Source: a virus (lineage: Duplodnaviria > Caudoviricetes). Taken from it: a stretch of 25,733 bases of DNA. The stretch is from positions 1 through 25,733 of IMG/VR virus record IMGVR_UViG_3300037608_000028; one strand, given 5' to 3'. The notes under the pieces are model-generated. The model worked only from the letters and a program-made list of their open reading frames with translations, was not told the DNA's origin and made no database searches. Numbering within the stretch: position 1 is the stretch's first letter; each line of letters starts with the position of its first letter. Made by a program: the position numbers and the translations under genes. Positions 805 to 19,374 of this stretch are shown here, piece after piece.

Positions 805-1343
805 GACCCTACCTCCTCCTCAAGGATGCTATAGACGTTGCAATCCCACCACTCCCCATTATACCATGCTGCTTTCCTCATCCGGCCTTCTTTGATGAGT
901 CCTATCCCTTCCATTGCGTGTATGGTCGGCATCGCGTAGAGTGGGACCTCAGCAATGATACGGTGGAAACCGAACTCCTTGAACGTATGGGCAATCATCG
1001 CCCGGATCAAATCTCGACGGCCCCGGAACCGGCGGTCCCAGAACGTAAAGTGGCCGGTCGCTTGATATGCCGGGTAGATGTCCGTCAGGAAGAAGATCCC
1101 GATGTCGTCGACCTCCCACACGATGCCGTTGGGCCTCAAGCTCCCGTCGGGATTCTGTGAGATGAACGTGTTGATGAAGTCGTCGATCCCCTGGATATGG
1201 CGATTGAAGAGGATGGGGAACTGAGATAGCTTCTCCCAGAGGAACCTCATGTTCTCGACGGAGAGGGGCATGAGCCTCACGCTTCGGATGATCTCACCTT
1301 CCGGTTCTTGGCACTCCACTTGCAGGATTGCTTCCATGATCAT
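792..1343 (-). CDS. GNAT (RimJ/RimL-like) acetyltransferase-fold protein
   Basis: C-terminal FKEFGFHRIIAEV...MEGIGLIKEGRMRKAAWYNGEWWDCNVYSIL is a typical RimJ/RimL signature. Start moved to the ATG at 1343, which overlaps the upstream TGA. Confidence 0.8.
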   Translation of the reverse strand: MIMEAILQVECQEPEGEIIRSVRLMPLSVENMRFLWEKLSQFPILFNRHIQGIDDFINTFISQNPDGSLRPNGIVWEVDDIGIFFLTDIYPAYQATGHFTFWDRRFRGRRDLIRAMIAHTFKEFGFHRIIAEVPLYAMPTIHAMEGIGLIKEGRMRKAAWYNGEWWDCNVYSILEEEVGSWGS

Positions 1344-2641
1344 CCTTTCCTTCGGCTCTCGCGCTCGACTAATTGCGCTTGCCACTCGAATAGGTGAACC
1401 GGGATGGCCCCGGAGAACTCGACCTTGAAGCGAACGTCTGAACCCGTGACGTTGAAGTGGGTCCTGATCCAGCGGATTGATTGGTCAGCCCCAAAGAGGG
1501 GGGTGAAGGTCATGATTGCATCCTTCCAGGTCTGACCTCCATTCCCAGATCCATAGACCTTGATGATCGTGGTGTCGTCAGCCTTGTAGCGGAACAGGAC
1601 CTCCACGAGTGTATAGTCACACTGGCGCTTGGTCCGGTTGAGGGTTGGTGATACCCAATAGGCTCCGCTCGACACCACGGTTGCACGGTCGAGCCGGTAT
1701 ACGATCTTGGCTGGGGTTGCATAGAGGACGTGCTTGCCCTCAACGATCACAGGTCGGGAGATGGTGCGTGAGTGCCTATGCCATGCAAGGGTCCTCAACG
1801 ACACCAGCTTCTCCATGTCAATCGACCATGTCGCTGCTCCGAGCCCCGTGCCATAGACCGTGATCTGACACGTCCAGACCTGAGTTGCAAAGGTGTTGTT
1901 GGTCGCTTGGATGGAGAAGATATAAGTTCCATCTGCCGCCGTGATCTCTCCTTCAGCTGCACTCAGCTCGCCGGTTGCGGAGTCAAGGACGATCCCCGTC
2001 GGGAGGGCCCCAGCGACCACAGACCAGACATAGGGAGTCTCAGGTGGAGCAGCCGTTGCAACCCAAAGCTCAACAGCGTGAGCAATGATCCGGTATGATC
2101 CTCCAGAAGGGTAATAGGTCGTATCCGTATACGAGGTTGGGTTCGCCATATCCCATGCCCCAATATAACTCCCGGCCCCATTTCCTGAGCTTCGATTCGT
2201 ATGTCCTGCAAGCGCCCCTGCGTACATCGAGGTATCCCCTGCTATTCCAGCAAAGGTCACAACCCAAGAGGTCCCATCGGTATGGGAGAGACTCAAGTTT
2301 GGAGTATCAAGCGTCCCTGCTGTTGCTGCCCCTGTCGCCTTCACTCCAATCACGGTTGTCCAGTCCATCCCTCGATAGACACAGACTTGAATCGAAGTTG
2401 CACCAGTCCAGATCCCAACGGTAGTCTCGGCTCCGGTTAGAACCTTGTAACCGACACGTTGAGCACAATATGAGGTTGCAGCAATCGTTCCAACGTCCGT
2501 CCATCCACTCGGAAGTGTTGGGGCTGTTCCTGAGCCAAGAACAAAGGCATGAACAATCGCAACATCATATGCTGCAATCCCTGCCGGCATATCACAAGTT
2601 GCGGCAGCAGCAAACTCATGCCCAACGAATGAGATGTTCAT
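1340..2641 (-). CDS. Chimeric virion protein: beta-rich N-terminal domain, partial putative Ig domain, then C-terminal part of a nozzle/stabilisation (gp10-like) protein
   Basis: PYVWSVVAGALPTGIVLDSATGELS resembles a He_PIG Ig repeat. The C-terminus (YWVSPTLN, VYGSGNGGQTW, DVRFKVEFSG) resembles gp10-like C-termini. Confidence 0.6.
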   Translation of the reverse strand: MNISFVGHEFAAAATCDMPAGIAAYDVAIVHAFVLGSGTAPTLPSGWTDVGTIAATSYCAQRVGYKVLTGAETTVGIWTGATSIQVCVYRGMDWTTVIGVKATGAATAGTLDTPNLSLSHTDGTSWVVTFAGIAGDTSMYAGALAGHTNRSSGNGAGSYIGAWDMANPTSYTDTTYYPSGGSYRIIAHAVELWVATAAPPETPYVWSVVAGALPTGIVLDSATGELSAAEGEITAADGTYIFSIQATNNTFATQVWTCQITVYGTGLGAATWSIDMEKLVSLRTLAWHRHSRTISRPVIVEGKHVLYATPAKIVYRLDRATVVSSGAYWVSPTLNRTKRQCDYTLVEVLFRYKADDTTIIKVYGSGNGGQTWKDAIMTFTPLFGADQSIRWIRTHFNVTGSDVRFKVEFSGAIPVHLFEWQAQLVERESRRKG

Positions 2642-3651
2642 CAGATGCTCGGGACGGTGGATTCGATCTGGTAGCTATATGCCTCACCACGCTTGGCGTT
2701 TGGGAGAGGACAGAGCGAAGTGATGTTGACGGCGTCGGGGATGTATGCGGGGTTCCCTACCGGGTCGAGAGAAACTGAGATCATGTCAACGTAGGTCTTT
2801 ATTGGTTGATTATCTTGTCCGTCGTAACAAGGATCATACCAAGCTGACCTATCATTGTTTGTAGAAACAAACCCAACAGCACCAGCAACTTGAGGCCAAT
2901 ACATATTGATGACATCGACATTCTTGACGTGCCAGATTGCAGACTCAGGATCACCAGATACCCATGTCCTAAAACTAACCCTACCGTTGACTACCCTAAA
3001 GCGAGCCATCGTATACCTATCTACGACAAAACCCCTTTGGTAGTTAGAGTAACAAGTACCCCCTCCTGGTTGGGGAACACTTATATTAGAAGGACTATCT
3101 TTAGCGTAGGTTCCCGTATAACCTACAGTATAAGGAGAATAGACTTGAGGAAAACCAATTTCAGACGACTCTCCATTTCCACTCAATAGAGCGACCCTAG
3201 ACCCATCACCCCTTGTATGAAGCTGGGCTGCCCAATCAGGATATTCAGTCGTTTTGTATCCAAGTGAGCAGAAGAACTCACAAGTTTGAACATAAGCTGA
3301 GCATTGAACTCCAAGACCTACACCACTAATTCCGTTAGCACCCCCCTCTACAATCCGTCCCCCTGGACCACCAAAGATGGCAAATGGATTGTACTGTTCA
3401 CTCTCCCCCGAGGCTCTAAACCTCATTACAACCTCAAACTCCTCAGGACTACCTGCAATGTCTAGACCTAAACCCGTATTGTAGAGGTTGATGAATGAAA
3501 GTGCTCTTCCACCATATGCTTTTTCATCAGAGATGACAGTCACTGTGCCATCTCCATACTTCGTCCAACCCTCCGGCACAATTGCCCCAAGCGCCGCATC
3601 ATAGAAGGTGTCATACCACGACACCCCAGCAACAACCTCAATGACTGCCAT
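2641..3651 (-). CDS. ConA/lectin-like beta-sandwich virion protein ending in the start of an Ig domain; possible receptor-binding module
   Basis: Motifs FEVVMRFR, MARFRVVNGRVSFRTWVSGDPE..W and YVDMISV. Ends ITSLCPLPNAKRGEAYSYQIEST. GGAGG 7 nt upstream of the ATG. Visibly AT-richer than its neighbours. Confidence 0.55.
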   Translation of the reverse strand: MAVIEVVAGVSWYDTFYDAALGAIVPEGWTKYGDGTVTVISDEKAYGGRALSFINLYNTGLGLDIAGSPEEFEVVMRFRASGESEQYNPFAIFGGPGGRIVEGGANGISGVGLGVQCSAYVQTCEFFCSLGYKTTEYPDWAAQLHTRGDGSRVALLSGNGESSEIGFPQVYSPYTVGYTGTYAKDSPSNISVPQPGGGTCYSNYQRGFVVDRYTMARFRVVNGRVSFRTWVSGDPESAIWHVKNVDVINMYWPQVAGAVGFVSTNNDRSAWYDPCYDGQDNQPIKTYVDMISVSLDPVGNPAYIPDAVNITSLCPLPNAKRGEAYSYQIESTVPSI

Positions 3652-5486
3652 CAGTGATCCTCCGGGATTGAGAGGATATATTCCTGGGTCACCGGATCGT
3701 AGACCGCCTCGACATCCGCTGGTGTGTCGATGGCGAACTTCTCGTTGATAGGAGAGCCGATGGCCTGATGTCCTGACTCTGTGAGCAGATAGATTTGACG
3801 GTCATGCCCAAGGAAGATGATGCCATAGGGCGTTGTAACGACAGAGAACGGACTCTCGGTTCCAAGCTTCTCGATCCAGGGATAGAAGGCAAGGGCCGGA
3901 TTCACGAGGCCTGTTGGCACAACTCTCATGATCGACCGCTGACGGAAGAGGACTCCGACATCTGAGGCCAACGACTTGAGGGCCATGACCGGGTCGATGG
4001 GGTCACTTCGAGAGATGATGGGAGAAAGGGCTGTGTCTCCAGACCCATTCCCAATCCAGTCAAGTGGATCCCCATTCACAGACCACCGGACCCGTTGGGG
4101 GTCGCCGTCGGACTGAAGCACAACTAGTCGGTCTGCGATGACCCCAAGATATCTACCCCGAACCACTGGATCCGTTGGCTCAATCGTGTCTCTCACAAAG
4201 AGGAGATCGTTCTGCTCAACCCCTACGAGCGAGTACTCGATCCCATAGTTCGCATCGGAGTCCGTAACCTTATTGAATCCATGAACCGCGACCTCGAACT
4301 TCTCCTCCCACTCCACATAGCTCCAAGCAAAGGTGTGAGAGGATGGAGTCTCATCAATCACGATCTTGAACCCCACAACATCCGCAACATCCTCATCTGC
4401 AATGAGGTCCTCGACATACGCCACTCCACAGTTATATGTCGAGGCCGTATGTGCGAGAAGATAGCCTACGCCATCATAGTCAAAATAGATGTCGATTTTG
4501 AGTCCCGTCCCCGTACCTCCAATGTGGAACTTGAAGGTATAGGTCTTGAGATAGGCTTCCCTAAGTGGAGTCTTTGGGGTTGCTTCCCAGACGTTCGTCG
4601 TGCTCACGCGCGTGAGCGTCTGAAGGCGTGTGACACTTGGAGCATAGATGGTCTTGATCTTGAGAGAAACGGGATCACCGTCTGCAATGTTTCGAACAAC
4701 GGTGATTGGGATGTTCGCGAACGTAGAAACACGATCTGTATCCGAGCTTTGAGCGATCCACTTCATGACACTGAAAAGCTCAAGTCCCATGTGCTCAACT
4801 GAGATGGTGACGTAGCCGCCCTCCTCAGAGGGTCCCGTGACTACGAGTGAGCAATGGACCACATACGTATACAACAGCGCACCGGCTGGAGTGACAGTGA
4901 CATCTACAGACTCACCCTCAGCAACAAGCAGGTTCGTGGTCGGGAAGTCATTCCCCTCGTCTGGGATGAGTGTTGAGCGGTCCCAACGGAAGATGCCCTG
5001 AGCTGTCCCATCTGCAAAGAACACCTGGTTGAAGAAGGACTCCCAGGAAAGCAGGGTGTCACTGATGACAACGCTATCTGTCCCCCCACCTGAAACCTCG
5101 TTCACCCACTCCCAATTCGCCGGGTCCGGGTCCGAGTCATCCAGAGAGTCAATGACTGCAAGGTCTGGATCTGCGTTGTCATGGTACAGCCTGAAGATTT
5201 TCTCATAGAGAGTCGTCTGTGCAACAACGAACCTGTGCTCTCCAAGAGCATATATCTTCTGTCCAGCGACTGCCGTTGCGTCCCCAAGCTGGAGCACACT
5301 ATAGTCCGCCCGTAGCGCCCCAAACTCGACGCGAACCTTATCATGCTTTGGAGACTGGTTCAACTCGATCTGTTGAGCACCTTTTGCGAGGATCATCCCA
5401 CCTTCGAAGGTCCCGCTCACGATCTCGGGATCCCTTGAGGGTGGAGCCACAAACTCGACGTTTGCTCCCCGGTATTTGTTGTTCAT
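3651..5486 (-). CDS. Tail nozzle/packaged-DNA stabilisation protein (P22 gp10-like beta-propeller), N-terminal part
   Basis: Motifs NQVFFADG..IFRWD, RYLGVIADRLV, RVRWSVNGDPLDW..GSG, GTESPFSVV...GIIFLG..IYLL..AIG.PI and AVYDP. Located after the adaptor genes. Confidence 0.7.
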   Translation of the reverse strand: MNNKYRGANVEFVAPPSRDPEIVSGTFEGGMILAKGAQQIELNQSPKHDKVRVEFGALRADYSVLQLGDATAVAGQKIYALGEHRFVVAQTTLYEKIFRLYHDNADPDLAVIDSLDDSDPDPANWEWVNEVSGGGTDSVVISDTLLSWESFFNQVFFADGTAQGIFRWDRSTLIPDEGNDFPTTNLLVAEGESVDVTVTPAGALLYTYVVHCSLVVTGPSEEGGYVTISVEHMGLELFSVMKWIAQSSDTDRVSTFANIPITVVRNIADGDPVSLKIKTIYAPSVTRLQTLTRVSTTNVWEATPKTPLREAYLKTYTFKFHIGGTGTGLKIDIYFDYDGVGYLLAHTASTYNCGVAYVEDLIADEDVADVVGFKIVIDETPSSHTFAWSYVEWEEKFEVAVHGFNKVTDSDANYGIEYSLVGVEQNDLLFVRDTIEPTDPVVRGRYLGVIADRLVVLQSDGDPQRVRWSVNGDPLDWIGNGSGDTALSPIISRSDPIDPVMALKSLASDVGVLFRQRSIMRVVPTGLVNPALAFYPWIEKLGTESPFSVVTTPYGIIFLGHDRQIYLLTESGHQAIGSPINEKFAIDTPADVEAVYDPVTQEYILSIPEDH

Positions 5487-5689
5487 GGAGTCTCCAGCGC
5501 CGTCACACGAGCATCGAGAGCATCGATCTGGGCCTGGAAATCCTCGATGACGTCAGCAAGAGTCGATCCATCGACGAGAGGGACTCCGTACTTCCAGCCC
5601 TCTTCACCAAAGACGATGGTATCTCCAATCGACGGGGATTGTCCACCTGTGAGGGCCCTGAGCAGTTGCTCAACCTCAACCTTATTCAT
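5483..5689 (-). CDS. Small virion protein with a C-terminal coiled coil (68 aa), possibly needle/plug-like
   Basis: ATG at 5689 overlaps the previous gene's end. Heptad FQAQIDALDARVTALE. The longer 146-aa track ORF overlaps the adaptor gene. Confidence 0.55.
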   Translation of the reverse strand: MNKVEVEQLLRALTGGQSPSIGDTIVFGEEGWKYGVPLVDGSTLADVIEDFQAQIDALDARVTALETP

Positions 5690-6326
5690 CTGAGATCCTT
5701 GCGGGATCAGCGTTGACATCCGCCCATTCCCACGCGACCTCAAGACCACCATGAGGAACGTCAGCGGAAATATCCTCTTCCTTCTTCCGAGAGGAGGCAT
5801 AGCCGAGGAAGCGACCAAGCCACCGATCCGCGACGTCGTTGTCACCAAGGGAGAGGAACCCGTGGTGAGTCGCCAACATGATGATGCCGTTGTCCCAATT
5901 CGCAGGGAGGGGGCTCTTGTCACCAGGAGCTACGAGCCTTGCGGGGGTCTTGATGTACTCAAGATCCAAGGTATAGGCCGTGTCAGGCTCAGGCCACAGG
6001 ACGAGGCTGTCCCCTCGCTTGAGATAGAAGGTTGGCTGTGAGGGGTCGAGATCTTCGTAGCTTGGGAGCCGGCGAGCCTTGAGGAGCCTCTTTCCGTCGA
6101 TCTCAAGAGTCACGACTCCAAGCATATCCTCAGGATAGGAGTAGGAGGTCACGCCATCGAGAATCGCGATGCTCGTGGAGACTCGGAACTCGTCGAAGAG
6201 GATATAGGACGCCAGGTTCAAGAGCCCGAAGTTCACCCACAACTTGAGCCTATCCGGGGCTGGTGCCTTTCCTCCAAGGTTCAGTGACAACTCAACTGTC
6301 ATCTCTTCAAGCGTCATGTATCCCAT
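5682..6326 (-). CDS. Head-tail adaptor/tail tubular protein A-like, paralog 2
   Basis: MTL.E, WVN.G, SYSYP, P.FY...LVLWPEPD..YTL.LEY...P.L and P.W...I..A pattern typical of phage adaptor proteins. Confidence 0.7.
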   Translation of the reverse strand: MGYMTLEEMTVELSLNLGGKAPAPDRLKLWVNFGLLNLASYILFDEFRVSTSIAILDGVTSYSYPEDMLGVVTLEIDGKRLLKARRLPSYEDLDPSQPTFYLKRGDSLVLWPEPDTAYTLDLEYIKTPARLVAPGDKSPLPANWDNGIIMLATHHGFLSLGDNDVADRWLGRFLGYASSRKKEEDISADVPHGGLEVAWEWADVNADPARISDE

Positions 6327-6329
6327 GAT

Positions 6330-6992
6330 TTAACCTCCCTGACCCTGCATTGATGCGAGCCTCTTTTGGAGGTTTGCACCCGAGGGCGGAAGCGAGGCCC
6401 CGAGTCCACTTGCCTCGGCGTGGAGGTCGGCCTCGGTGATCCGGGTCTGGATGTAGGTGATGGCACGAGAGAGCCATGCAACACTTCGCTGCTCATCACC
6501 GAGAGCGAGAAGCGCATGATGCACAGAGAGCTGGAAGATTGCCGGGTCCCAAATGTCAGGGAACACCGACACGTCCACCGCCGTTGTGAATCGAGCAGGT
6601 GGAGTCTTGAACACAACAAACAAGCTATAGACCCCATCAGGAACCGGTGAGAGATAGATCAGGTCCTTGTGTCGGGTCCAGTTCTTCGGCTCGCTTGTGA
6701 TGGTCACACTCCTTCGCATCAGCTCGGCCTTCGGAACCCAACCAAGGAGGTTGTCACTCGTGTTGTTTCGGATGAGCTTGACCACCATCGAGTTTGCAGG
6801 TGAAGCGATCGTCTGCGTTGCATCGACGGTTGCAGTCGTCTCATCGTCATCAAGGACCTCGAAGTCCACACTACCTGCGAGGTCATGATATCCATAGTTG
6901 ATCCAACGATCCAGCCTCGGGTTGTCGAAGCCCCGGTCGCCTAGCGCACTCTGAACGTCCGTGCGGAAGTCATCCAAAGTCATGTATCCCAT
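6330..6992 (-). CDS. Head-tail adaptor/tail tubular protein A-like, paralog 1
   Basis: Same motif series (WINYG, IYLSPVPDGVYSL, FPDIWD.AI) and collinear with 5682-6326. Confidence 0.7.
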   Translation of the reverse strand: MGYMTLDDFRTDVQSALGDRGFDNPRLDRWINYGYHDLAGSVDFEVLDDDETTATVDATQTIASPANSMVVKLIRNNTSDNLLGWVPKAELMRRSVTITSEPKNWTRHKDLIYLSPVPDGVYSLFVVFKTPPARFTTAVDVSVFPDIWDPAIFQLSVHHALLALGDEQRSVAWLSRAITYIQTRITEADLHAEASGLGASLPPSGANLQKRLASMQGQGG

Positions 6993-6993
6993 C

Positions 6994-7269
6994 TCACGAC
7001 CCTCCCTGAGCTTCGACGAGAATGGTGATGAAACTGAGACCCTCTATCTCACCCACGTGAGCCCTGACACTCCACCCGGTCAGGACCTCACCCAACCCAA
7101 CGAACCTCGTCCCCCGAGGAGACTCGACCTCGAGCCTGATCTGGCCGTTTAGCTTCACAGAAACAGGCCGAGCCTCCACGGAGGACTCCCAAGCACTCGC
7201 ATCCGAGATGCGAACCCACGGTCCAACAACTGGAGGAGTGGCACCGAGTACAAGAGCCTTTGCCCGCAT
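6994..7269 (-). CDS. Hypothetical small virion protein, 91 aa
   Basis: GGAGG upstream; fills the operon without overlap; beta-rich. Confidence 0.6.
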   Translation of the reverse strand: MRAKALVLGATPPVVGPWVRISDASAWESSVEARPVSVKLNGQIRLEVESPRGTRFVGLGEVLTGWSVRAHVGEIEGLSFITILVEAQGGS

Positions 7270-7294: not shown

Positions 7295-8263
7295 CTACGT
7301 CGTTGCCGTCAGCACAGCCTCGCCACCCGTGGTAGCAGGGGAGCCGGCTGTCGTGTAGATCCCCCGCGCCGTAGCACAGGTGTCGGTCACGTTGATCGAC
7401 CAGCTGTCCCTGAGCAGGATCATGCCGTCGGTCAGGGCAGCACCGCTCCCAAACACGAGAGCCTGCGTAGCCGAGGAGAGCTTGTCGTTCCAGAACAAGC
7501 ACCGGTCGAACAGCATCATCCGCTCGACATCGGTCGCCGTCGTGATCTTGACATGGACACCCGTCGTTGCGCTGGTCTTGTGCTGAAGGATGCACTTCTC
7601 GAACGTGACATCCCTTGCCACCTTCCCTGCGATGGTCTCACGAGTGAGCAACACGCACCCACGGGCAACGGACTTCGTGTAGATGTTGTTCCCGATGCCG
7701 CACCTGTAGTAGAAACTCGTGTCGCCATTGCAGAGAAGCTCTGCCGCCGTGACCTGGTTGAGGTCCTCGTCCTTTTCCAGGTTGACGTGATCGAGAACCG
7801 TGTACTCACCCCCATCCGCGAGCGCGAAGAGGCTCGTTGCAAGGGAGTCAGTGGAACGGATCTTGAGGTTGTGGAGCGAGACCCCAACTCCGGTGATCGT
7901 GACGGCTGCGATAGCCGTCCCGGTTGTGAGGCCCATCTCCAGCCGAGTCCGATGCCCGAAGATCCGACCATCACCTCCAGCACCGGCCCCAGGGTCGGCT
8001 CCGAAGATGTGGACTCGGTTCTTTGCGATGAGCAACTCGTCCGACAGAGGATGAGCCGAGTTCGCTGACAGGATCAGGCAATCGTGCCGGTTTGTCCGAA
8101 GTGCGTCGTACCCCTGCTCCACGGTCTTGAAGGGCTTGTCCATGTTGGACCCATCATACCCATCACTCCCGTGGTTGTAGTCCACGAAGAACGTGCGGCC
8201 GAAGGTCGAGGGAAGCCTACCTCCCATCGTCCCGAAGCCGAAAGGCCCGTGCTCGCGACTCAT
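7295..8263 (-). CDS. Pectin-lyase-like beta-helix virion protein (possible capsid fibre)
   Basis: FFVD..GSDG.DG...KPFKTV..G motif typical of beta-helix N-termini, then F..C repeats. AGGAGG upstream. Directly follows the major capsid gene. Confidence 0.6.
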   Translation of the reverse strand: MSREHGPFGFGTMGGRLPSTFGRTFFVDYNHGSDGYDGSNMDKPFKTVEQGYDALRTNRHDCLILSANSAHPLSDELLIAKNRVHIFGADPGAGAGGDGRIFGHRTRLEMGLTTGTAIAAVTITGVGVSLHNLKIRSTDSLATSLFALADGGEYTVLDHVNLEKDEDLNQVTAAELLCNGDTSFYYRCGIGNNIYTKSVARGCVLLTRETIAGKVARDVTFEKCILQHKTSATTGVHVKITTATDVERMMLFDRCLFWNDKLSSATQALVFGSGAALTDGMILLRDSWSINVTDTCATARGIYTTAGSPATTGGEAVLTATT

Positions 8264-8275
8264 GATGACTCCTCC

Positions 8276-9190
8276 TTACGAGCCGGTACCATCGGACCCG
8301 ATGATACCCCTCTGGTCGAAGAAGTAGACGAGCAAACGCTGACGGCCCCAGAACTTCGCTGCCAGGGTGCCACCCGCGTCCTGCGAGTCACCGAACTGAG
8401 GACGGATACGGAACTTGAACTTCATGTCGATGAGGGAGGGGTCCTGGATGAACCAGGCGCCGTTGTCCTCCTTGTAGTGCAGAACCCGGTAGTCCCGGAT
8501 CCCGGACATCAGCAACGCGGCGTTGACGTTCCGGTCGATGGTATCCGGTTCGTTGGGGTTCTTGGTCAGCTGGATGGCCCAGTACTCGTCCGAGGGACTG
8601 ATGATCAGACGCCGCAGTTGCAGCGGCATCGGGTCACCCTGGTGGTCGACCTGGGTTCCACCCATCTCCAGAGCCGCCTGGTAGCCGGTCACGGAGAGAG
8701 CCGGGTTCCCGCTGACCTCGTTCGACCACGTCCCGACGCCATTCAGCAGCGCGTGATCGTCATCGATGAGCTTCTCTCCCAGCAGACCCGTGTAGACCGA
8801 CCCCGTGAAGGCGTCGTCCAGCAGGGACGCTGCGAGGTACTCCTGGGTGAGACGAGCAGAGCGCCCGAGCCACTTGGCGTTCTGGTTCGCCCGCCCATAC
8901 TGGTCGTCCTCGATCATCCTTCGCGAGATCATGAACCCAAGGGCCCATTCGTCATCGACGAACGTGTACTTGTTGGACATGACCGGATCAACGAAGGAGA
9001 TCGTTCCGACCTCAGTCTTCCGCACCATGCGACCGAGGCCCGAGATCGCCACCCTTTCCTCCTCTGCCCTGTCGAGGTTCTCGACGGTGAGGAACATACC
9101 ATATTCCTCAGGGAAGGAGTTGTAGCTGTCTCGGAAGTCCTTCCTCAGTCCTGGGCGCAGCAGATGGTTCCATGCGCCACGAACGATCAT
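8276..9190 (-). CDS. Major capsid protein (HK97 fold, Mu gpT-like family)
   Basis: LLRPGL, ALGFMISR.MIEDDQY, LGRSAR.TQE..AA.LL..AFT and terminal RGIIGS.G motifs. 304 aa, strong GC3 bias, AGGAG upstream. Confidence 0.85.
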   Translation of the reverse strand: MIVRGAWNHLLRPGLRKDFRDSYNSFPEEYGMFLTVENLDRAEEERVAISGLGRMVRKTEVGTISFVDPVMSNKYTFVDDEWALGFMISRRMIEDDQYGRANQNAKWLGRSARLTQEYLAASLLDDAFTGSVYTGLLGEKLIDDDHALLNGVGTWSNEVSGNPALSVTGYQAALEMGGTQVDHQGDPMPLQLRRLIISPSDEYWAIQLTKNPNEPDTIDRNVNAALLMSGIRDYRVLHYKEDNGAWFIQDPSLIDMKFKFRIRPQFGDSQDAGGTLAAKFWGRQRLLVYFFDQRGIIGSDGTGS

Positions 9191-9226
9191 GATCCTTCTC
9201 CTTCTGTGTCAGGGTTGTGCATCCCT

Positions 9227-9247
9227 GATCTTTACTGGGTAAATTTC
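9227..9247. promoter_or_regulatory. 21-bp palindromic operator-like site, copy 2 (GATCTTTAC-TGG-GTAAATTTC)
   Basis: Intergenic, upstream of the major capsid gene; near-identical to copy 1 in inverted orientation. Confidence 0.6.
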
Positions 9248-9259
9248 ACCCAGTTAGGA

Positions 9260-9739
9260 TCACGGCTGCTGAATGGCACTCTCGATGAACTTGAAGAACA
9301 CGATGTTCCGATCCGTGTCGATGCCGATGACCTCGACCACAACGTTCGTAGTGTCTGCCTCATCGACAGCGGTCCACTCGTCCAAGCCGGATCCAATGTC
9401 GAGAAGCCCGTACTCCACGTTGATGTTCGCCTCGTCTACGGTCTGGACGACGCCAGATCCGTTCACGAGTGCGGCCATGAACACGTTCGAACGAGATGCC
9501 AGCGCAACCGCGACCATTCCACTCGGGTTGTGCGCGACCCCAGCGGTAACACCCTCCATCGAAACTCCGAGGATGTTGGTTACCGTCGTGCTGAGTGCGT
9601 GCTCATCGAGTTCCTGACTCGCCGTATCCCAAGTGACCGGAGTCCCTCGGGGATAGGTCTGATCGGAACCCGGAGCACGGTCAACACACTCCGGCCACCC
9701 ACCGTTGGGGAACTGAGCCGGCTGCATCCTGAAAGGCAT
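9260..9739 (-). CDS. Capsid decoration/cement-like protein
   Basis: G.PV, ILGV..EG and N.IV.FKF pattern; lies just upstream of the major capsid gene. Start moved to ATG 9739, which follows GGAGG. Confidence 0.55.
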   Translation of the reverse strand: MPFRMQPAQFPNGGWPECVDRAPGSDQTYPRGTPVTWDTASQELDEHALSTTVTNILGVSMEGVTAGVAHNPSGMVAVALASRSNVFMAALVNGSGVVQTVDEANINVEYGLLDIGSGLDEWTAVDEADTTNVVVEVIGIDTDRNIVFFKFIESAIQQP

Positions 9740-9751
9740 GAGTTCCTCCAT

Positions 9752-10306
9752 CTAGCGTGAGATTGTGGTACTGCTTTCGTCGAAGGGAACCGGTCCCTTC
9801 CCACCTTCGGCAGCACGTTCGGCCTCACGCGTATACTCTTGCCGACCCTGCTCCCCCACCTTGTACTTGATCCGATCACTCTGGATCTCGCGGAGTATCT
9901 CGATATCCTCGCGAGTGATGGTCATGAGTACAACGTCACCTACGCGGACACGTCCGTCCGGCGAGGCGTTGAGCCCCTTGGCTCCTTCTCGATAGGTGAA
10001 GCCGTATCCGAGGTTCGAGTAGCGGATGACGTCACCTTCGGTGTCACGAACAAACTTCCCTGCGTATCCCTCGGGCACACTCAGATTGTAGGCGAGAGCG
10101 AGCTTTTCGTTCAGGATTCCTCGGGTGAGAACTTGGGCATAGCGAGCCTTCTTTGTTGCACGCTCACTTGCCCTGATCTCAGCTTCCTCGGGGGTGAGGT
10201 CCTTTCTTGGCTCAGTGGATGTGACCTCGGCGTTCGCCTTCGCATCCTCACGGAGCTTCTTGAGGGCGTCCTCTCCAGCCTTGCGGAGATCAGCTTGATC
10301 GCTCAT
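9752..10306 (-). CDS. Hypothetical head-module protein
   Basis: VPEGY.GKFVR, LGY and VRVGDVVLM resemble proteins often found between scaffold and capsid genes. Likely start is ATG 10306. Confidence 0.55.
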   Translation of the reverse strand: MSDQADLRKAGEDALKKLREDAKANAEVTSTEPRKDLTPEEAEIRASERATKKARYAQVLTRGILNEKLALAYNLSVPEGYAGKFVRDTEGDVIRYSNLGYGFTYREGAKGLNASPDGRVRVGDVVLMTITREDIEILREIQSDRIKYKVGEQGRQEYTREAERAAEGGKGPVPFDESSTTISR

Positions 10307-10308
10307 GG

Positions 10309-11214
10309 CTACCACCGATCCTTTGAGAACCCAGGCTGGACGACGGCGTCCTCAGGGGCGTCCTGAAGGGCGATGTAGTCGGCCTCGGGATCCTTGGAGG
10401 CAGGGAAGTAGACCTTCGCGAGCATCCGCTCTTCCTCACTCAGGACCCGTCTTGCGGGGCCAGGACGAGCGGGGAGAGGGGCGGCACTGGGGCGATGCTG
10501 AGGAATCATGATCGGGGGAGCCTCACGCGTAGGGGGAGCCTCGGGAGCCGGTGCCGGTGCAGACGCCGCAGTCGAGAGGTTGATCCCCTGCTCGGTTGCG
10601 ATTCCGACGGCGGTGTGGTAGATGGTTCGGAGCTGAGATTCCTTCACCGTTGCCGGGTCGAGCTTCTGCTCACGGAGCAGGGCGTCGATATGGGGCTCCA
10701 ACACGGTGAAGTGCTTCAACTCTCCCCGAAGCTTCCCTCTCGTGCCCTCACCCTCCGACCTTGCCGCTCCACGCATGAGGGGCTCGATCATCTTGCCGAG
10801 GTGATCCGTTACCCTCTCTTCGAGAACCTTGAACCGGGGGGCGAGGAAGTCATCCCCGTAGGGTGAGGCATCGTCGGAACGCGCAGGAGTGGGCGCTGCC
10901 GGCTGCGGAGTGGCCTCGGCATGACGCCGATTCAACTCCGTGTTCTGTGCCACGAGTGCCGCTTGCTGCGCTGCGACCAAAGCCTCAACCTCCTCCGGTG
11001 TCTTTCCCTTCAGCAGCGGGTGCTTGAAGTCCACCGCCCCCGGTGCTGCGACGACCTCCAGGCTCTCGTCCGGTGGAGAATCCGCTCCATCCGGGGTCAA
11101 GCTCGATCTCTGGCTCTCTGAGGATTCCTCCCCTGGAGGGGCTTCGACCTCTGAGATACTCTCCAAATCTTCCGAGCCCTGGGGCTTCGGTGGGACCTGC
11201 ACTCTGGCTACCAT
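10309..11214 (-). CDS. Capsid scaffolding protein (putative)
   Basis: Acidic Pro-rich N-terminus, KGKT.EE motif, coiled coil and LSEEER near the C-terminus. Between portal and capsid genes; GAGGAG upstream. Confidence 0.65.
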   Translation of the reverse strand: MVARVQVPPKPQGSEDLESISEVEAPPGEESSESQRSSLTPDGADSPPDESLEVVAAPGAVDFKHPLLKGKTPEEVEALVAAQQAALVAQNTELNRRHAEATPQPAAPTPARSDDASPYGDDFLAPRFKVLEERVTDHLGKMIEPLMRGAARSEGEGTRGKLRGELKHFTVLEPHIDALLREQKLDPATVKESQLRTIYHTAVGIATEQGINLSTAASAPAPAPEAPPTREAPPIMIPQHRPSAAPLPARPGPARRVLSEEERMLAKVYFPASKDPEADYIALQDAPEDAVVQPGFSKDRW

Positions 11215-11458
11215 GTGACTCTCCTCGCGTAGTGGACACGTCCTGGATCAAGCCGAGTATTGACCTAATCCCTTCCAACACATTCCTCTTATCCCAGCAT
11301 CCCTGGGGATCCGCCCCCGACACCATTTCCAGCACCATCGCCTCCGCCTGAAGCTCCAAAAGCCTCAACAAGCTGCTCGACTCCGGTTGGGAGAGCAGCT
11401 TCTTCAGATCCGGCAGGAGTTCCGGGTGAGCTTTCTGCACCGCCTGTAGGTCCAGCAT
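10985..11458 (-). CDS. Small helical post-portal protein overlapping both portal and scaffold genes
   Basis: First ~75 aa are amphipathic-helical and GAGGG lies upstream of the ATG. It is the listed minus-strand ORF covering the 11215-11288 gap. Confidence 0.5.
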   Translation of the reverse strand: MLDLQAVQKAHPELLPDLKKLLSQPESSSLLRLLELQAEAMVLEMVSGADPQGCWDKRNVLEGIRSILGLIQDVSTTRGESHGSQSAGPTEAPGLGRFGEYLRGRSPSRGGILREPEIELDPGWSGFSTGREPGGRRSTGGGGLQAPAAEGKDTGGG

Positions 11459-13325
11459 TTTGAGCCCTCATCTTTTCCAGATCGAGTAGGAAGGAATCGA
11501 CGTCGGGAACCTGGAAGGCATCGAGGAGTCTCCGCATCGCTGCGTTGGCGGATCTCAATGCCATGTCTGCGAACATGATGAATACCTGCGGATCCTGCAT
11601 GAGTCCAGCGACCTGACCTGCACGCTCAAGAACCTTGTCATAGTGCGCGGAGAGGGCGCTGAAGAGCTGGATCCACTTCTGCTGCTCGACGTCCTTGTTC
11701 GTGATGGAGTCGGTGACCGTGAGTTCAACGTAGACCCCACGCCGGACATCTTCCTGAGGCATGGCGAGATAGTGCTCGACATACTTGCCACCCTCACCTC
11801 GGACCAACCAGGAGCGGCCTCGCGAGCCAAACTGCTGATAGTTCGCGAGAACATCCTGACCCAAGAGAGAGAACATCCGCCTCACGTTCTTGAGCACCAT
11901 GTCGAACTTCTTGTTCCCTTCCGCAAGCTTCGACAGGTCGCTCGTTGCAGGAGGAGGAGTTCCAATCTGAGGGCTCCCCAGGATCAGCTCGTTTGCGCCT
12001 GAGCGCTTGTCCGCATAACCTCGGGCGGAGTCCTCGTTCGAGAGCTGAGCAAAGTGCTGGAGGTTCGAGAGATGGAACTCCTTGACATCTGTTTGGGGAT
12101 TGTTGAAGAACCAAATCTTCCCTGGCCAGATTGGCTCATCCTGTGAGTACCCGGACGTCCGAGAGAGCGCAAGCTGACCCATGTTTGCGAGGGTCCCTGC
12201 GTCGAGCCTCTGCCGGTGGATGGCCGTGATGAGGGCCTGGAACTGTTCAAGCTGCTTCCCAATTCCAATCCCTGCCCACCGACCCTCGACCGGGATGTAT
12301 ACTCCAATGCGGTAGGGCCGGTGTGCATCTGCGTACCAGTTGTACCGAGCTGAGAGAACCGTCCGAGACTCCTTGTGGAAGTCTATGACGATTTCCTCGT
12401 CCACTCCATCCTTGTCGACATCGAACGAGAGCCAAAGCTCTTGGAAGTCAAATGTCTCCTTCCATCCGGGTTCGGCGTTTTCCTGCGTTCTCCGGCTCGC
12501 CTCATACTGCACACCCGAAGACTCCGTGCTCGGGGTGTTGCTCCACCACATCCTGATGGATTCGATGGCCTCGGGATACATCCGGCCCGAGAGAGCATGA
12601 CGCTTGAGCTGCGACCAAGTGACGTTGTGATGTTCCTCCCCAACGAGCATCGCGGTTTGAGGATTGTTCTCATGGAGGCGCATGAGGAAGTTGGCGAGCG
12701 GAACATAGTCGAGGGTTGCCCCGTTCCTGACCTCGATCCACTTCCCAACGCTCCCACCCTCCGGGAGGTCGATGTTGACTTTGCGAATGTCCCTCTCGTA
12801 GCCTGACTTCCCGACTGCCGTGCCGAGCTTGATGAGTTCAAGAAGGCTCTCTTGTGCAAAGCGGGGCATATCCAGCGAATTCGGATCATCAACCTCGGTT
12901 TGGAGCCAACTCTCGACGTTTGGGGCTTCGTTGATCCAAGCTGCGATGCGTGGCCGAAGGGAGTAGAAAGGCTTGACTGAGAAGAGGGTCGTGATCAGCC
13001 GGGCAAGCACAGCCTCCACCGCGATTGCCGTCATGGGGATGACGACGTTTGCAGCTTTGCGGAAGGGGAAGTTCTTGACTGTGCTCGCCGGCTTGGCCCA
13101 ATAGTCCTTCTGCCACTGGATCCAATCCTGGACGAGGATGTTCCTCTCGGACCAAACGAGTGAGATCTCGCTGTCGAGGTACTCAGTCAGCCGGCTCTCC
13201 GTCTCCTCGTCCAACGACAACATCCTGGGCCACCGACCCGAGAGTTCATTCTCAAGCCCAGGCGGAGGTCCTGGGATCTTGACATCCCCCTCCCATGCCG
13301 GGTCGCGTAGCAAGGATAGTGTCAT
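11289..13325 (-). CDS. Portal protein (podovirus-type)
   Basis: 678 aa, downstream of terL. Motifs LGTAVGK.GY, FQELW..D.D.DG..E, G.GIG..L...Q..I....RQR.D and IWPGKIW. Low-complexity C-terminal tail. Confidence 0.85.
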   Translation of the reverse strand: MTLSLLRDPAWEGDVKIPGPPPGLENELSGRWPRMLSLDEETESRLTEYLDSEISLVWSERNILVQDWIQWQKDYWAKPASTVKNFPFRKAANVVIPMTAIAVEAVLARLITTLFSVKPFYSLRPRIAAWINEAPNVESWLQTEVDDPNSLDMPRFAQESLLELIKLGTAVGKSGYERDIRKVNIDLPEGGSVGKWIEVRNGATLDYVPLANFLMRLHENNPQTAMLVGEEHHNVTWSQLKRHALSGRMYPEAIESIRMWWSNTPSTESSGVQYEASRRTQENAEPGWKETFDFQELWLSFDVDKDGVDEEIVIDFHKESRTVLSARYNWYADAHRPYRIGVYIPVEGRWAGIGIGKQLEQFQALITAIHRQRLDAGTLANMGQLALSRTSGYSQDEPIWPGKIWFFNNPQTDVKEFHLSNLQHFAQLSNEDSARGYADKRSGANELILGSPQIGTPPPATSDLSKLAEGNKKFDMVLKNVRRMFSLLGQDVLANYQQFGSRGRSWLVRGEGGKYVEHYLAMPQEDVRRGVYVELTVTDSITNKDVEQQKWIQLFSALSAHYDKVLERAGQVAGLMQDPQVFIMFADMALRSANAAMRRLLDAFQVPDVDSFLLDLEKMRAQNAGPTGGAESSPGTPAGSEEAALPTGVEQLVEAFGASGGGDGAGNGVGGGSPGMLG

Positions 13326-17304: not shown

Positions 17305-19374
17305 CTACATCTCCGAGTTGAGCCGGAGGATCTGTGCAGCGGAGAGGGCACGGCGGAAGAGGGCGGCGGAGTAGAACTGCATATCAGCATACGCCGTCCC
17401 TGAATCCGCGTAGCGCCCGATTCTGAGGGCGTAGGCGTTGGCGAGTGTCGCTGTAGTGCTGTCCGTCGATCCCGCCGACCCCGTACCGTCAACAAACGCC
17501 GCCACGAGCACACCGGCGTTGCGCCGCCCGACAATAACCGCCTCCGCTCCCGCCGTAGGATGGCTTTCGGCATCTTGACCACGATTGGTGCCGTCAGAGG
17601 CCGTGACGCCGACACCTGCGCCTGCGTTGAACGTGACCAGTGAGTATCCAGTAGATGCGGCGGCGGTGCTAACCTGTTTAGCAAACAAAGCCTGAGACAC
17701 GGACACATTCCATGTAGCCTTCCTTGTCCTTAGCACAGCCGTAAAGCTCTCCGTCGCAGCGAAATCCAACCTCGCATGGTCATCCACTTCAATGTAGTCA
17801 TCCACCCCATCGAACACAGCCACGTTCTCCGCGACCACCGTGCTCTTGAGCCCCGTGGCGCTGCGGTTGATCGTCACGGTCTGCCCCGTTACGGCAGTCA
17901 ACCCCGTGTGCGTGGCGTTGTAGGAGGCGTCGGCGGTGAAGTCCACAGTGCAGGCGGGCGTGCCAGCAATCGTCAGAATCCACTGAGCACCACGCGCTAC
18001 TCCAGAGTACGTCGCTAGTGAGGTAGTACGCCCACCGATGTCTAGGGTCTGCGTGCTTGCGTAGATCCCAGCAATGGCGATGGTCTGGTCCGTGCCCAAC
18101 TGCACCCACGTTCCTGCACCCGTAGACGGAGCGTAGTCCGTGCAGGTGAAGAACTGCACCCGCCCGTCCGACGCCCGCCATGTCGCCCTGAACCCATTAG
18201 CCCCGGCTGCGTACGCCGCCCCGGAGTCCACCCCGGCAATCGCGGTACCGTCCACAGACAGCAGCAACGCCAGATAGTTACTGGTATTCAACTCGAAGCG
18301 GACGGCACGATTTCCCGCTGCCCCGTACTTGGAAACGAGAGAGCGCGTCGTACCAGCACCCGCTGGCGTGCCCCCAAACCTGACATCCAGTTCGGTGGTC
18401 GGCCTCAGTCCAGCCACATCTGGCACGGTGCAGCAGTTCGTATCGGTACCGGGATACCACAGATACGAGGTGCCCCCGTGGTACAGCCTCGTGGGCATCG
18501 CAGCCGTGTCTGCGCTCTGGTTCACCGTGACCGTCTGGCCCGTGGAGCAGACGAAGGTGCGCGTGCCCTGGGCCTGGGTCGTGAAGTCCACGGAGAGGGT
18601 GGTGCCGGTGTCGAGAACGAGGCCGGTGCCCATGCGGGCGGCGTAGATGGTGCCGATCATAAACGCAGATGTCCCTACATTGAGCGAACCACACTCCCAC
18701 GCAGCCGTACCAGCGAAGACACTGGTGACGCCAGCGGTCGTTACCGTCGAACCCAACTGCGCCCACGATCCACCCGGCACCCGCCACCAGAACTTCACAT
18801 CATTCCCGACCGCGCCGTTATCTACATCGTGCGTCACCGCAACCTGAACACGAACGGTGTTGGCGACGACCGTTTCTAGTACGGCGGTTGATTCAACGGT
18901 TGCTACAGTGTCAGTGCCGTTGGCAGACCACCGATACTCAAGTTTCCCCTCAGCATCATTGATGCCAAAGCGTGCTGACCTACTTCCAGCTCCACCCCAT
19001 CGGGCCTGAATGATCCTTGGGTTCCCAGTAGCAGACGAGTAATCAGCACAACGAGTGTCACCGAGGTACCACTGATCCCCGATCGGCCTATTGCCTGCAG
19101 CATCCGGCACACTCGCATAGTTCCCGCTGACCCCACCAAGAATCAGCCCCCGGTCCCCATACGTCGTGTCACCGATCAGCGCACGCTTGACCCCACCGTA
19201 CCAGCCGTGGTGGCCGTTGCCGCTGTAGTCGATCAGCACGCCGTTGGTGCTGACCTGCTTTCGCATGGACCACTCACCCACAAGCCCATTACTCCCTGGG
19301 CCGACGACTCTCCCAACACCACCAGCAATCGCATCAATCCCTGTGATGTGGTCAATCGCCGTGATGTAGCCCAT
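17305..19374 (-). CDS. Multi-domain LamG/ConA-like virion fibre or adhesin, 689 aa
   Basis: GLVGEWSM..LIDYSGNGHHG, FDGVDDYIEV, LRIG and RALSAAQI are LamG_3-type motifs; two internal homologous units. Confidence 0.75.
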   Translation of the reverse strand: MGYITAIDHITGIDAIAGGVGRVVGPGSNGLVGEWSMRKQVSTNGVLIDYSGNGHHGWYGGVKRALIGDTTYGDRGLILGGVSGNYASVPDAAGNRPIGDQWYLGDTRCADYSSATGNPRIIQARWGGAGSRSARFGINDAEGKLEYRWSANGTDTVATVESTAVLETVVANTVRVQVAVTHDVDNGAVGNDVKFWWRVPGGSWAQLGSTVTTAGVTSVFAGTAAWECGSLNVGTSAFMIGTIYAARMGTGLVLDTGTTLSVDFTTQAQGTRTFVCSTGQTVTVNQSADTAAMPTRLYHGGTSYLWYPGTDTNCCTVPDVAGLRPTTELDVRFGGTPAGAGTTRSLVSKYGAAGNRAVRFELNTSNYLALLLSVDGTAIAGVDSGAAYAAGANGFRATWRASDGRVQFFTCTDYAPSTGAGTWVQLGTDQTIAIAGIYASTQTLDIGGRTTSLATYSGVARGAQWILTIAGTPACTVDFTADASYNATHTGLTAVTGQTVTINRSATGLKSTVVAENVAVFDGVDDYIEVDDHARLDFAATESFTAVLRTRKATWNVSVSQALFAKQVSTAAASTGYSLVTFNAGAGVGVTASDGTNRGQDAESHPTAGAEAVIVGRRNAGVLVAAFVDGTGSAGSTDSTTATLANAYALRIGRYADSGTAYADMQFYSAALFRRALSAAQILRLNSEM

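Follow-up and report, generated by a model that had tools for sequence, protein, structure and literature searches.

The stretch of DNA analysed here (the window) comes from an uncultured phage with a short tail. It is a contig of 25.7 kb (25,733 nucleotides; IMG/VR record IMGVR_UViG_3300037608_000028), in which the tail nozzle is divided between genes. All nozzle open reading frames (ORFs) are on the - strand. Two of them, A and C, are pieces of one nozzle family, with a third, B, lying between them, and the break is genuine and recurs in relatives. Also in the gap is an immunoglobulin-like (Ig) domain of the He_PIG type (PF05345), which, judged by sequence, is itself cut at the B/C junction into complementary halves. 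We think it probable that A, B and C are three separately started genes and that the nozzle subunit is formed from three chains by fold completion.

The nozzle parts are most easily described by reference to P0012, an intact family member of 751 amino acids (aa):

ORF A, 3651-5486, - strand: 611 aa, the N-part of a podophage nozzle/tail hub, with the N-terminal platform strands and most of the beta-propeller; ends ...QEYILSIPEDH, break site 1 being directly after strand EYILSIP
Inner insert of A (about aa 171-425), 4212-4976, - strand: in frame, all-beta in the model of a homolog, without counterpart in the minimal family members of about 480-550 aa
ORF B, 2641-3651, - strand: 336 aa
ORF C, 1340-2641, - strand: 433 aa
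C aa 266-320, 1682-1846, - strand: last five propeller strands, aligned to P0012 587-641, which are five strands in the P0012 model
C aa 321-433, 1340-1681, - strand: C-terminal platform domain (P0012 platform 645-744)

The initial annotation had described A as a nozzle-like ORF that stops early and is continued from about 1831 within C. These coordinates are confirmed and both pieces align to P0012, A 3-608 to residues 2-580 (38% identity, E 9e-121) and the tail of C to residues 589-746 (BLASTP E 2e-37). Nozzle sequence restarts at 1831 (T271 of C), 1820 bases past the A stop. When the 611-aa ORF and the end of C are compared separately with the family profile (513 positions), as had been proposed, they cover 3-335 and 338-507, adjacent and complementary parts of one family that do not overlap. 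The P0012 model has a predicted local distance difference test (pLDDT) score of 95.1, and every one of its 22 best VIA rows is a podophage tail entry. The predicted fold matches the nozzles of Pa223, SU10 and P22, with an interrupted beta-propeller and a platform made from N- and C-terminal segments, and A and C together cover the P0012 model end to end. Break site 1 falls in the hairpin loop 581-586 of this model, between strands 574-580 and 587-594. Among solved nozzles, the A3 profile finds 9nwi_Y (E 5e-17) and 7eeq (E 0.005). Neither A alone nor C alone gave anything useful against solved-structure sequences, A has no match in Pfam or PHROG, and P0012 has a single weak match among annotated phages (E 0.3). 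When C is folded alone, aa 273-296 are below pLDDT 50. That A and C complement each other in one fold is thus a claim we hold with high confidence. The inner insert of A is likely, by analogy with the nozzle domains of SU10 (PMC9509320), the equivalent of nozzle-tip domains.

The nozzles of P22, Pa223, SU10 and T7 are single polypeptides, whereas here the nozzle takes two genes, as it also does in two related loci. In L001, the same three ORFs (700, 337, and 433 aa) are broken at identical residues. L005 has the same layout and the same break residues, its C being cut by the contig end. The window and L001 are 64-73% identical in amino acids and synonymous sites are saturated. When A, B and C are taken in nine segments, the proportion of synonymous differences (pS) is 0.57-0.78 and the non-synonymous divergence (dN) 0.15-0.48; in the eight of nine segments where synonymous divergence (dS) is computable, it is 1.06-2.2 against the same range of dN. 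These substitution patterns indicate that the split is old and under selection.

The divided Ig domain and the cargo

According to the initial annotation, the gap encodes three domains, nested and with two TGATG junctions: one lectin-like, one further beta and one Ig. This layout is supported. The Ig domain is indeed present, but it does not simply lie between the nozzle parts, as it is cut at the B/C junction:

B aa 1-303, 2743-3651, - strand: lectin-like (ConA/L-type beta-sandwich) domain
B aa 304-336, 2644-2742, - strand: N-part of a He_PIG-type Ig domain, likely its first two strands
C aa 1-193, 2063-2641, - strand: beta domain (phrog_36177, E 1e-15)
C aa 194-265, 1847-2062, - strand: C-terminal two thirds of a He_PIG Ig domain

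Residues 194-265 of C match positions 36-95 of the 96 in PF05345 (C aa 201-262) with 30.1 bits (cut-off 24); with the whole of C the score is 23.7, just below the cut-off. At its widest, the Pfam match to C covers positions 34-95. We also made our own Ig profile from 39 intact He_PIG repeats of 7 public records. Its positions 30/35-92 are matched by all five C-type proteins, and positions 5/12-32 by the last 30 or so residues of all five B-type proteins (5-30 in the B of the window). Hence the Ig positions missing from C, 1-29/34, are present at the end of B, and the whole unit of about 90 aa is not in one chain. In a scan by windows, the tail is the top window in each of the five B-type proteins and the five tails are the five best among 11 proteins; shuffled sequences score as high in 0, 0, 4, 0, and 0 cases of 500. 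The 30 residues that precede the Ig C-half in C stay at background scores (17.5-18.8) in 5/5 proteins. The tail is retained in every B-type protein found (5/5).

Composition and conservation follow the same pattern. For the G+C content at third codon positions (GC3), the lectin-like part has 0.38 and the beta domain of C 0.44, against 0.73 for the Ig half of B, 0.61 for that of C and 0.59-0.72 for the nozzle parts, so that GC3 is genome-like in the Ig halves and not in the cargo. Likewise, identity to L001 is 73% in the B tail (pS 0.78) and 72% in the Ig half of C, compared to 53% and 56% in the adjoining lectin-like and beta domains. Composition and identity therefore follow the nesting, in the order nozzle-N / lectin-like, Ig-N / beta domain, Ig-C, nozzle-C.

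In the proposed assembly, A would obtain its final five propeller strands and the bulk of the platform from C. The Ig domain of C would be completed by the last 30 or so residues of B, which would tether the predicted lectin-like domain of that protein. The three chains would be held together non-covalently. If the three proteins lock by completing each other's folds, a domain of predicted sugar-binding type would be suspended from the tail. A single surface hairpin may bear the accessory domains, with six copies of each projecting from the hexamer, and they may there grip the host surface. In chaperone-usher pili, an Ig-like fold is completed by a strand from another chain (donor-strand complementation), which makes a non-covalent link. 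Here the donor would differ in being a C-terminal tag that supplies the first strands, and no chaperone is apparent. He_PIG is normally a contiguous domain of about 90 aa, whereas here it is on two genes with a 193 aa domain between. In the literature, searched mostly without subscription papers, no phage Ig domain divided between genes was found. We consider complementation of the Ig domain by the B tail likely.

Several points weigh against the three-chain assembly. The phage is known here from its genes alone. Individually, the B tails score just 0.1-4.1 bits on the Ig profile, their local scores are 21.6-25.2 against a median of 34 for intact N-halves, and Pfam does not detect them when they are searched alone. 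Compared to the distant L005, conservation is no higher in the tail than in the lectin part. The model of C has a strand, 186-194, directly before the Ig C-half, which may leave room for completion in cis. No Shine-Dalgarno match precedes C in the window or in L001. The lectin assignment comes from a low-confidence Atlas model of B (pLDDT 0.47), which matches the GH59 C-terminal lectin and 3-keto-disaccharide-hydrolase-like domains with template modelling (TM) scores of 0.54-0.59, all below the bar for assigning a family name. Finally, neither a single chain with lectin, whole Ig and nozzle end nor a two-gene intermediate was found in three word-indexed searches of limited sensitivity. A search for longer fused forms found four C-type proteins only; it was insensitive, since it missed known intact nozzles such as P0012.

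Some of these points would be expected if the nozzle were a heteromer of two chains, A and C, and B an untethered passenger, loose or not part of the virion, with a vestigial tail. The Ig part of C would then fold with its own upstream strand or stay partial. The weak profile scores of the individual tails, strand 186-194 and the lack of preferential conservation against L005 are in its favor. However, the region before the Ig C-half is at background in all five proteins, the five B tails are the best windows of the 11 proteins, and the tail is kept in all B-type proteins and is well conserved toward L001 in spite of the high pS. We regard an untethered B as unlikely.

The cargo itself is less well defined. 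B has no match in Pfam or PHROG, and a profile of B found nothing useful among solved-structure sequences. Residues 1-193 of C match, with Atlas features of 0.95-0.96, stand-alone proteins of 175-192 aa that are mostly viral. By tblastn they match 25 Rhizobium and Mycobacterium phage records, in minor-tail or hypothetical proteins, and in one Rhizobium phage protein the beta domain starts at residue 1. In a structure search of the C model the platform domain filled the match lists, and no fold was obtained for aa 1-193. The lectin-like domain is of a predicted sugar-binding type, and from fold and position the chances that the cargo binds the host surface appear about even. The cargo had been thought to consist of exchangeable host-recognition modules; neither exchange nor host recognition is borne out. 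Cargo is the same in all of the B-type and C-type proteins found (five each), with identities close to that of the nozzle tail and diverging about in step with it, and swapping of cassettes within the lineage was looked for and not found. Other cargo at the site-1 loop is seen only in four more distant proteins (P0006, P0007, P0009, and P0029), which run from site 1 into unrelated sequence.

Junctions and expression of the three genes

The features bearing on how the genes are expressed are as follows:

Junction 1, 3649-3653, - strand: TGATG stop/start overlap (TGATG in L001, ATGA in L005)
Junction 2, 2639-2643, - strand: TGATG stop/start overlap (ATGA in L001, TAGTG in L005)
Shine-Dalgarno-like GGAGG, 3659-3663, - strand: 7 nt before the B ATG, within the last codons of A (P-E-D); same in L001

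A start codon is retained at every junction of the three loci even though the type of overlap differs (TGATG/TGATG, TGATG/ATGA, and ATGA/TAGTG). A, B and C are probably separately started genes that are coupled, and translational coupling through the overlaps would give A, B and C in a ratio of about 1:1:1. The initial annotation had also allowed for recoded fusions, that is, a single chain of about 1380 aa made partly or wholly by -1 frameshifting or bypassing at both junctions, in which the nested domains would be ordinary in-chain insertions. At every overlap the following gene is indeed in the -1 frame, the domains come in the order of a single nested chain, and the window has 50 open codons in the B frame ahead of the B start. 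However, the open stretch shared by the frames has no slippery heptamer at any of the six junctions of the three loci, and at junction 1 of L005 it is open for three codons only. The persistence of start codons under changing overlaps and the GGAGG before B also speak for separate starts, and -1 overlaps are a common coupled type, seen also from C to the next gene. A recoded fusion is therefore improbable.

Splicing of RNA or protein could restore a short intact nozzle by removing the insert, and excising about 3654-1850 would indeed rejoin a typical hairpin. However, the insert encodes protein domains under selection, its end continues in frame into the nozzle tail, both being read from a start of their own, and no intein or homing-endonuclease family was found in B or C by Pfam or PHROG. 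We give splicing very little credence.

That an assembly error or a decaying gene broke one long ORF might be suspected from the low depth (about 7x), junction 1 at 3651 having read cover from X1 alone, a possible source run; but this is refuted for practical purposes by the conserved breaks, which recur in both L001, in spite of its divergence, and L005, and 12 further 50%-identity representatives (L001 and L005 included) stop within 8 residues of the same strand. The window DNA is present in two groundwater runs and one coal-metagenome run. One contig of run X1, a run that may be the source of the window itself, covers 1249-5149 with 0 differences and 0 gaps, including both junctions, and an X3 contig from another study crosses junction 2 at 2641 with 0 differences. 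Thus the split is not a sequencing error, and no indel that would fuse the ORFs, a possibility raised earlier, is seen in either contig. The X2 and X3 contigs match the window mostly at no less than 99%.

Relatives, break sites and known systems

The census of the family covers all 150 listed representatives at 50% identity. Twelve of them, those of L001 and L005 included, end within 8 residues of the last strand of A (site 1), and 60 end 33-53 residues after site 1 (site 2). Platform and propeller are in the same chain in 40/150, P0012 being the example used above, so that relatives with an uninterrupted gene, asked for earlier, do exist; seven close ones have only about 5-12 residues between the parts. 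Another 34 are of other form, including 23 with tails of 182-243 aa (probably intact but diverged) and the four that continue from site 1 into unrelated sequence (P0006, P0007, P0009, and P0029); a further four of the 150 were not placed. DNA was seen for a few members, L001 and L005 for site 1 and L003, L006, L007, and L008 for site 2. (L002, L004, and L018 are the L001 contig again, and L009 encodes the same proteins as L007.) In the site-2 loci, a gene of 138-156 aa with the rest of the nozzle comes directly next, through an ATGA, TAATG or TGATG overlap. Some representatives whose DNA was not seen could end at contig ends, but the common end points argue against this for most. In gp59 of Pa223, site 1 aligns to the loop at about 316-326 and site 2 to the fibre attachment loop, 354-387.

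A quick tree was made from 98 rows and 168 columns (13 site-1 forms, 4 fused, 25 of the 40 intact and 56 of the 60 site-2 forms). All site-1 forms fall with 10 intact ones in a group of 27 rows (support 99), apart from the site-2 forms, and three intact rows lie within site-2 groups, also at 99. In a more careful tree (26 rows, 581 columns), intact rows take the basal positions, and a branch with support of 45/41 has all 16 site-1 forms on the same side. A repeated origin of the split at site 1, hinted at by the 168-column tree, is not upheld by the 581-column tree and was dropped as unproven. At that branch support, the tree neither establishes nor refutes that the site-1 forms arose once, from an intact ancestor. 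No relatives were found in the genome contig collection, nor among viral contigs searched with the nozzle tail alone and with P0007; with B, the viral contigs gave the L001 contig only. The sole name returned by a cluster look-up is "hypothetical protein."

The splitting principle is known from A1002, a Pseudomonas podophage with a solved nozzle made of nozzle-base gp42 and nozzle-rope gp39 (PMC13730344). In gp42, one blade is short of two strands and another of three, and the platform is for the most part absent; gp39 469-620 supplies all of these. By number, the fibre genes gp41 and gp40 lie between gp42 and gp39; accessory products bind the second chain through beta-sheet contacts, and gp39 contains an Ig-like domain. 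This precedent makes separate chains, as first suggested for the window, the best reading, and the view that nozzles are always single polypeptides, on which that annotation also drew, no longer holds. Pa223 gp59 (PDB 9NWI; bioRxiv 10.1101/2025.06.11.659172), SU10 gp17 (PMC9509320), P22 gp10 and T7 gp12 are single chains, unlike the nozzle here.

Judged by strand count and length, the cut in the window looks equivalent to that in A1002. As in A1002, the second chain carries the last five propeller strands (51 aa in A1002, about 50 aa here) and the platform (about 113 aa here), the downstream gene has an Ig-like domain and other additions ahead of the nozzle end, and accessory genes lie in the gap. 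Unlike A1002, there is no 300 Å rope and there are no 11 fibre dimers; the 265 aa that precede the nozzle part of C are fully taken by the beta domain and the Ig C-half, with no long rope segment. Moreover, the Ig-like domain of A1002 is described as lying within gp39, whereas here B appears to dock by completing a split one. KPP25, of the same genus as A1002, has genes of the same four sizes in the same order, with ORF007 and ORF006 between ORF008 and ORF005. Five profiles of the nozzle family gave no significant match to the KPP25 counterparts (best independent E-values 0.09-0.6 among 7 sequences), and the fission is therefore probably separate from that of the A1002 type, although, given the fold, the nozzle cores are still expected to be remote homologs. 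The equivalent cut was thus probably reached independently. No other two-protein nozzle was found in the literature searched. The first split therefore has a solved precedent, and what is new is the nested Ig split and the census of two sites.

In A1002 the split is treated as unique and explained by co-adaptation of two acquired genes (PMC13730344). Here, nozzles that are intact, split at site 1 or split at site 2 occur within one family. Their origin can therefore be tested, and the pattern points toward fission at loops that permit it, including a known fibre attachment loop. In the window, each break directly precedes the first residue of a cargo domain. Domains may have come in whole, each bringing a start codon and taking over the frame downstream of it, lectin and Ig first into the nozzle hairpin and the beta domain then into the Ig loop. 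A chain break would permit such additions without both ends of the domain having to come back to the loop. We lean slightly toward a more general reading, in which podophage nozzles have two fission-tolerant surface loops, chain breaks are used recursively in this lineage as a kind of assembly grammar, and the split Ig within the split nozzle is a plug-and-socket linker for a separately encoded receptor-binding head. If so, this family, large and uncultured, would commonly have split nozzles (some half of the 150 nearest representatives), and equivalent loops would have been split on more than one occasion, through insertion of genes and not by co-adaptation of the A1002 kind. The nested split Ig would be a natural and genetically separable docking link for tail accessories, of which we found no example in print. 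Annotation overlooks split nozzles, as A has no family match and the 138-156 aa second halves resemble unrelated hypothetical proteins.

Other additions are seen among the relatives. The nozzle N-part has further in-frame inserts, of about 87 aa after residue 104 or so in L001 (6001-8103) and of about 70 aa near residue 435 in P0020. In L008, a site-2 nozzle (4773-7094; P0065) extends about 80 aa beyond site 2, with D/E-spaced hydrophobic repeats before the stop, and a collagen-like (Gly-X-Y) protein of 1511 aa (7405-11940) is encoded directly 3' of the small nozzle C gene. An upstream protein in L009 (2133-3953) has many repeats similar to those of L008, by eye rope-like as in A1002 gp39. P0018 and P0019 are intact nozzles with a C-terminal extension of about 250 aa, LamG-like by eye, and P0124 and P0139 have long tails with PKD or Big_2 repeats.

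Genome neighborhood

On the - strand of the window, the large terminase, an SU10-type portal (PF23899), the major capsid protein and two SU10-type adaptors (PF24175) are followed by A, B, C and a GNAT-like gene, which is the position of the nozzle gene in podophages. The genes adjoining the nozzle are:

Two tandem SU10-type adaptor genes, 5682-6326 and 6330-6992, - strand: upstream of the nozzle; PF24175, E 3.9e-19 and 7.5e-17
GNAT-like acetyltransferase gene, 792-1343, - strand: coupled to C by an ATGA overlap; also found after the nozzle C-part in relatives

By synteny, the genes downstream of the nozzle are presumably of the ejection type. The GNAT-like gene is 3' of the nozzle C-part in the window, L001, L003, L006, and L009, directly before the likely ejection genes. 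A tandem adaptor pair like that at 5682-6992 is described for GP4 and crAss-like phages in the Pa223 study (bioRxiv 10.1101/2025.06.11.659172).

Elsewhere in the window, 17305-19374 (- strand) encodes a protein of 689 aa, whose last 179 aa match Laminin_G_3 (E 7e-7). By eye, its first 60 or so aa look like the start of Laminin_G_3, with two more lectin-like units between. Self-BLAST showed no internal repeat in this protein. This may be a nested insertion, made in frame, within the same genome.

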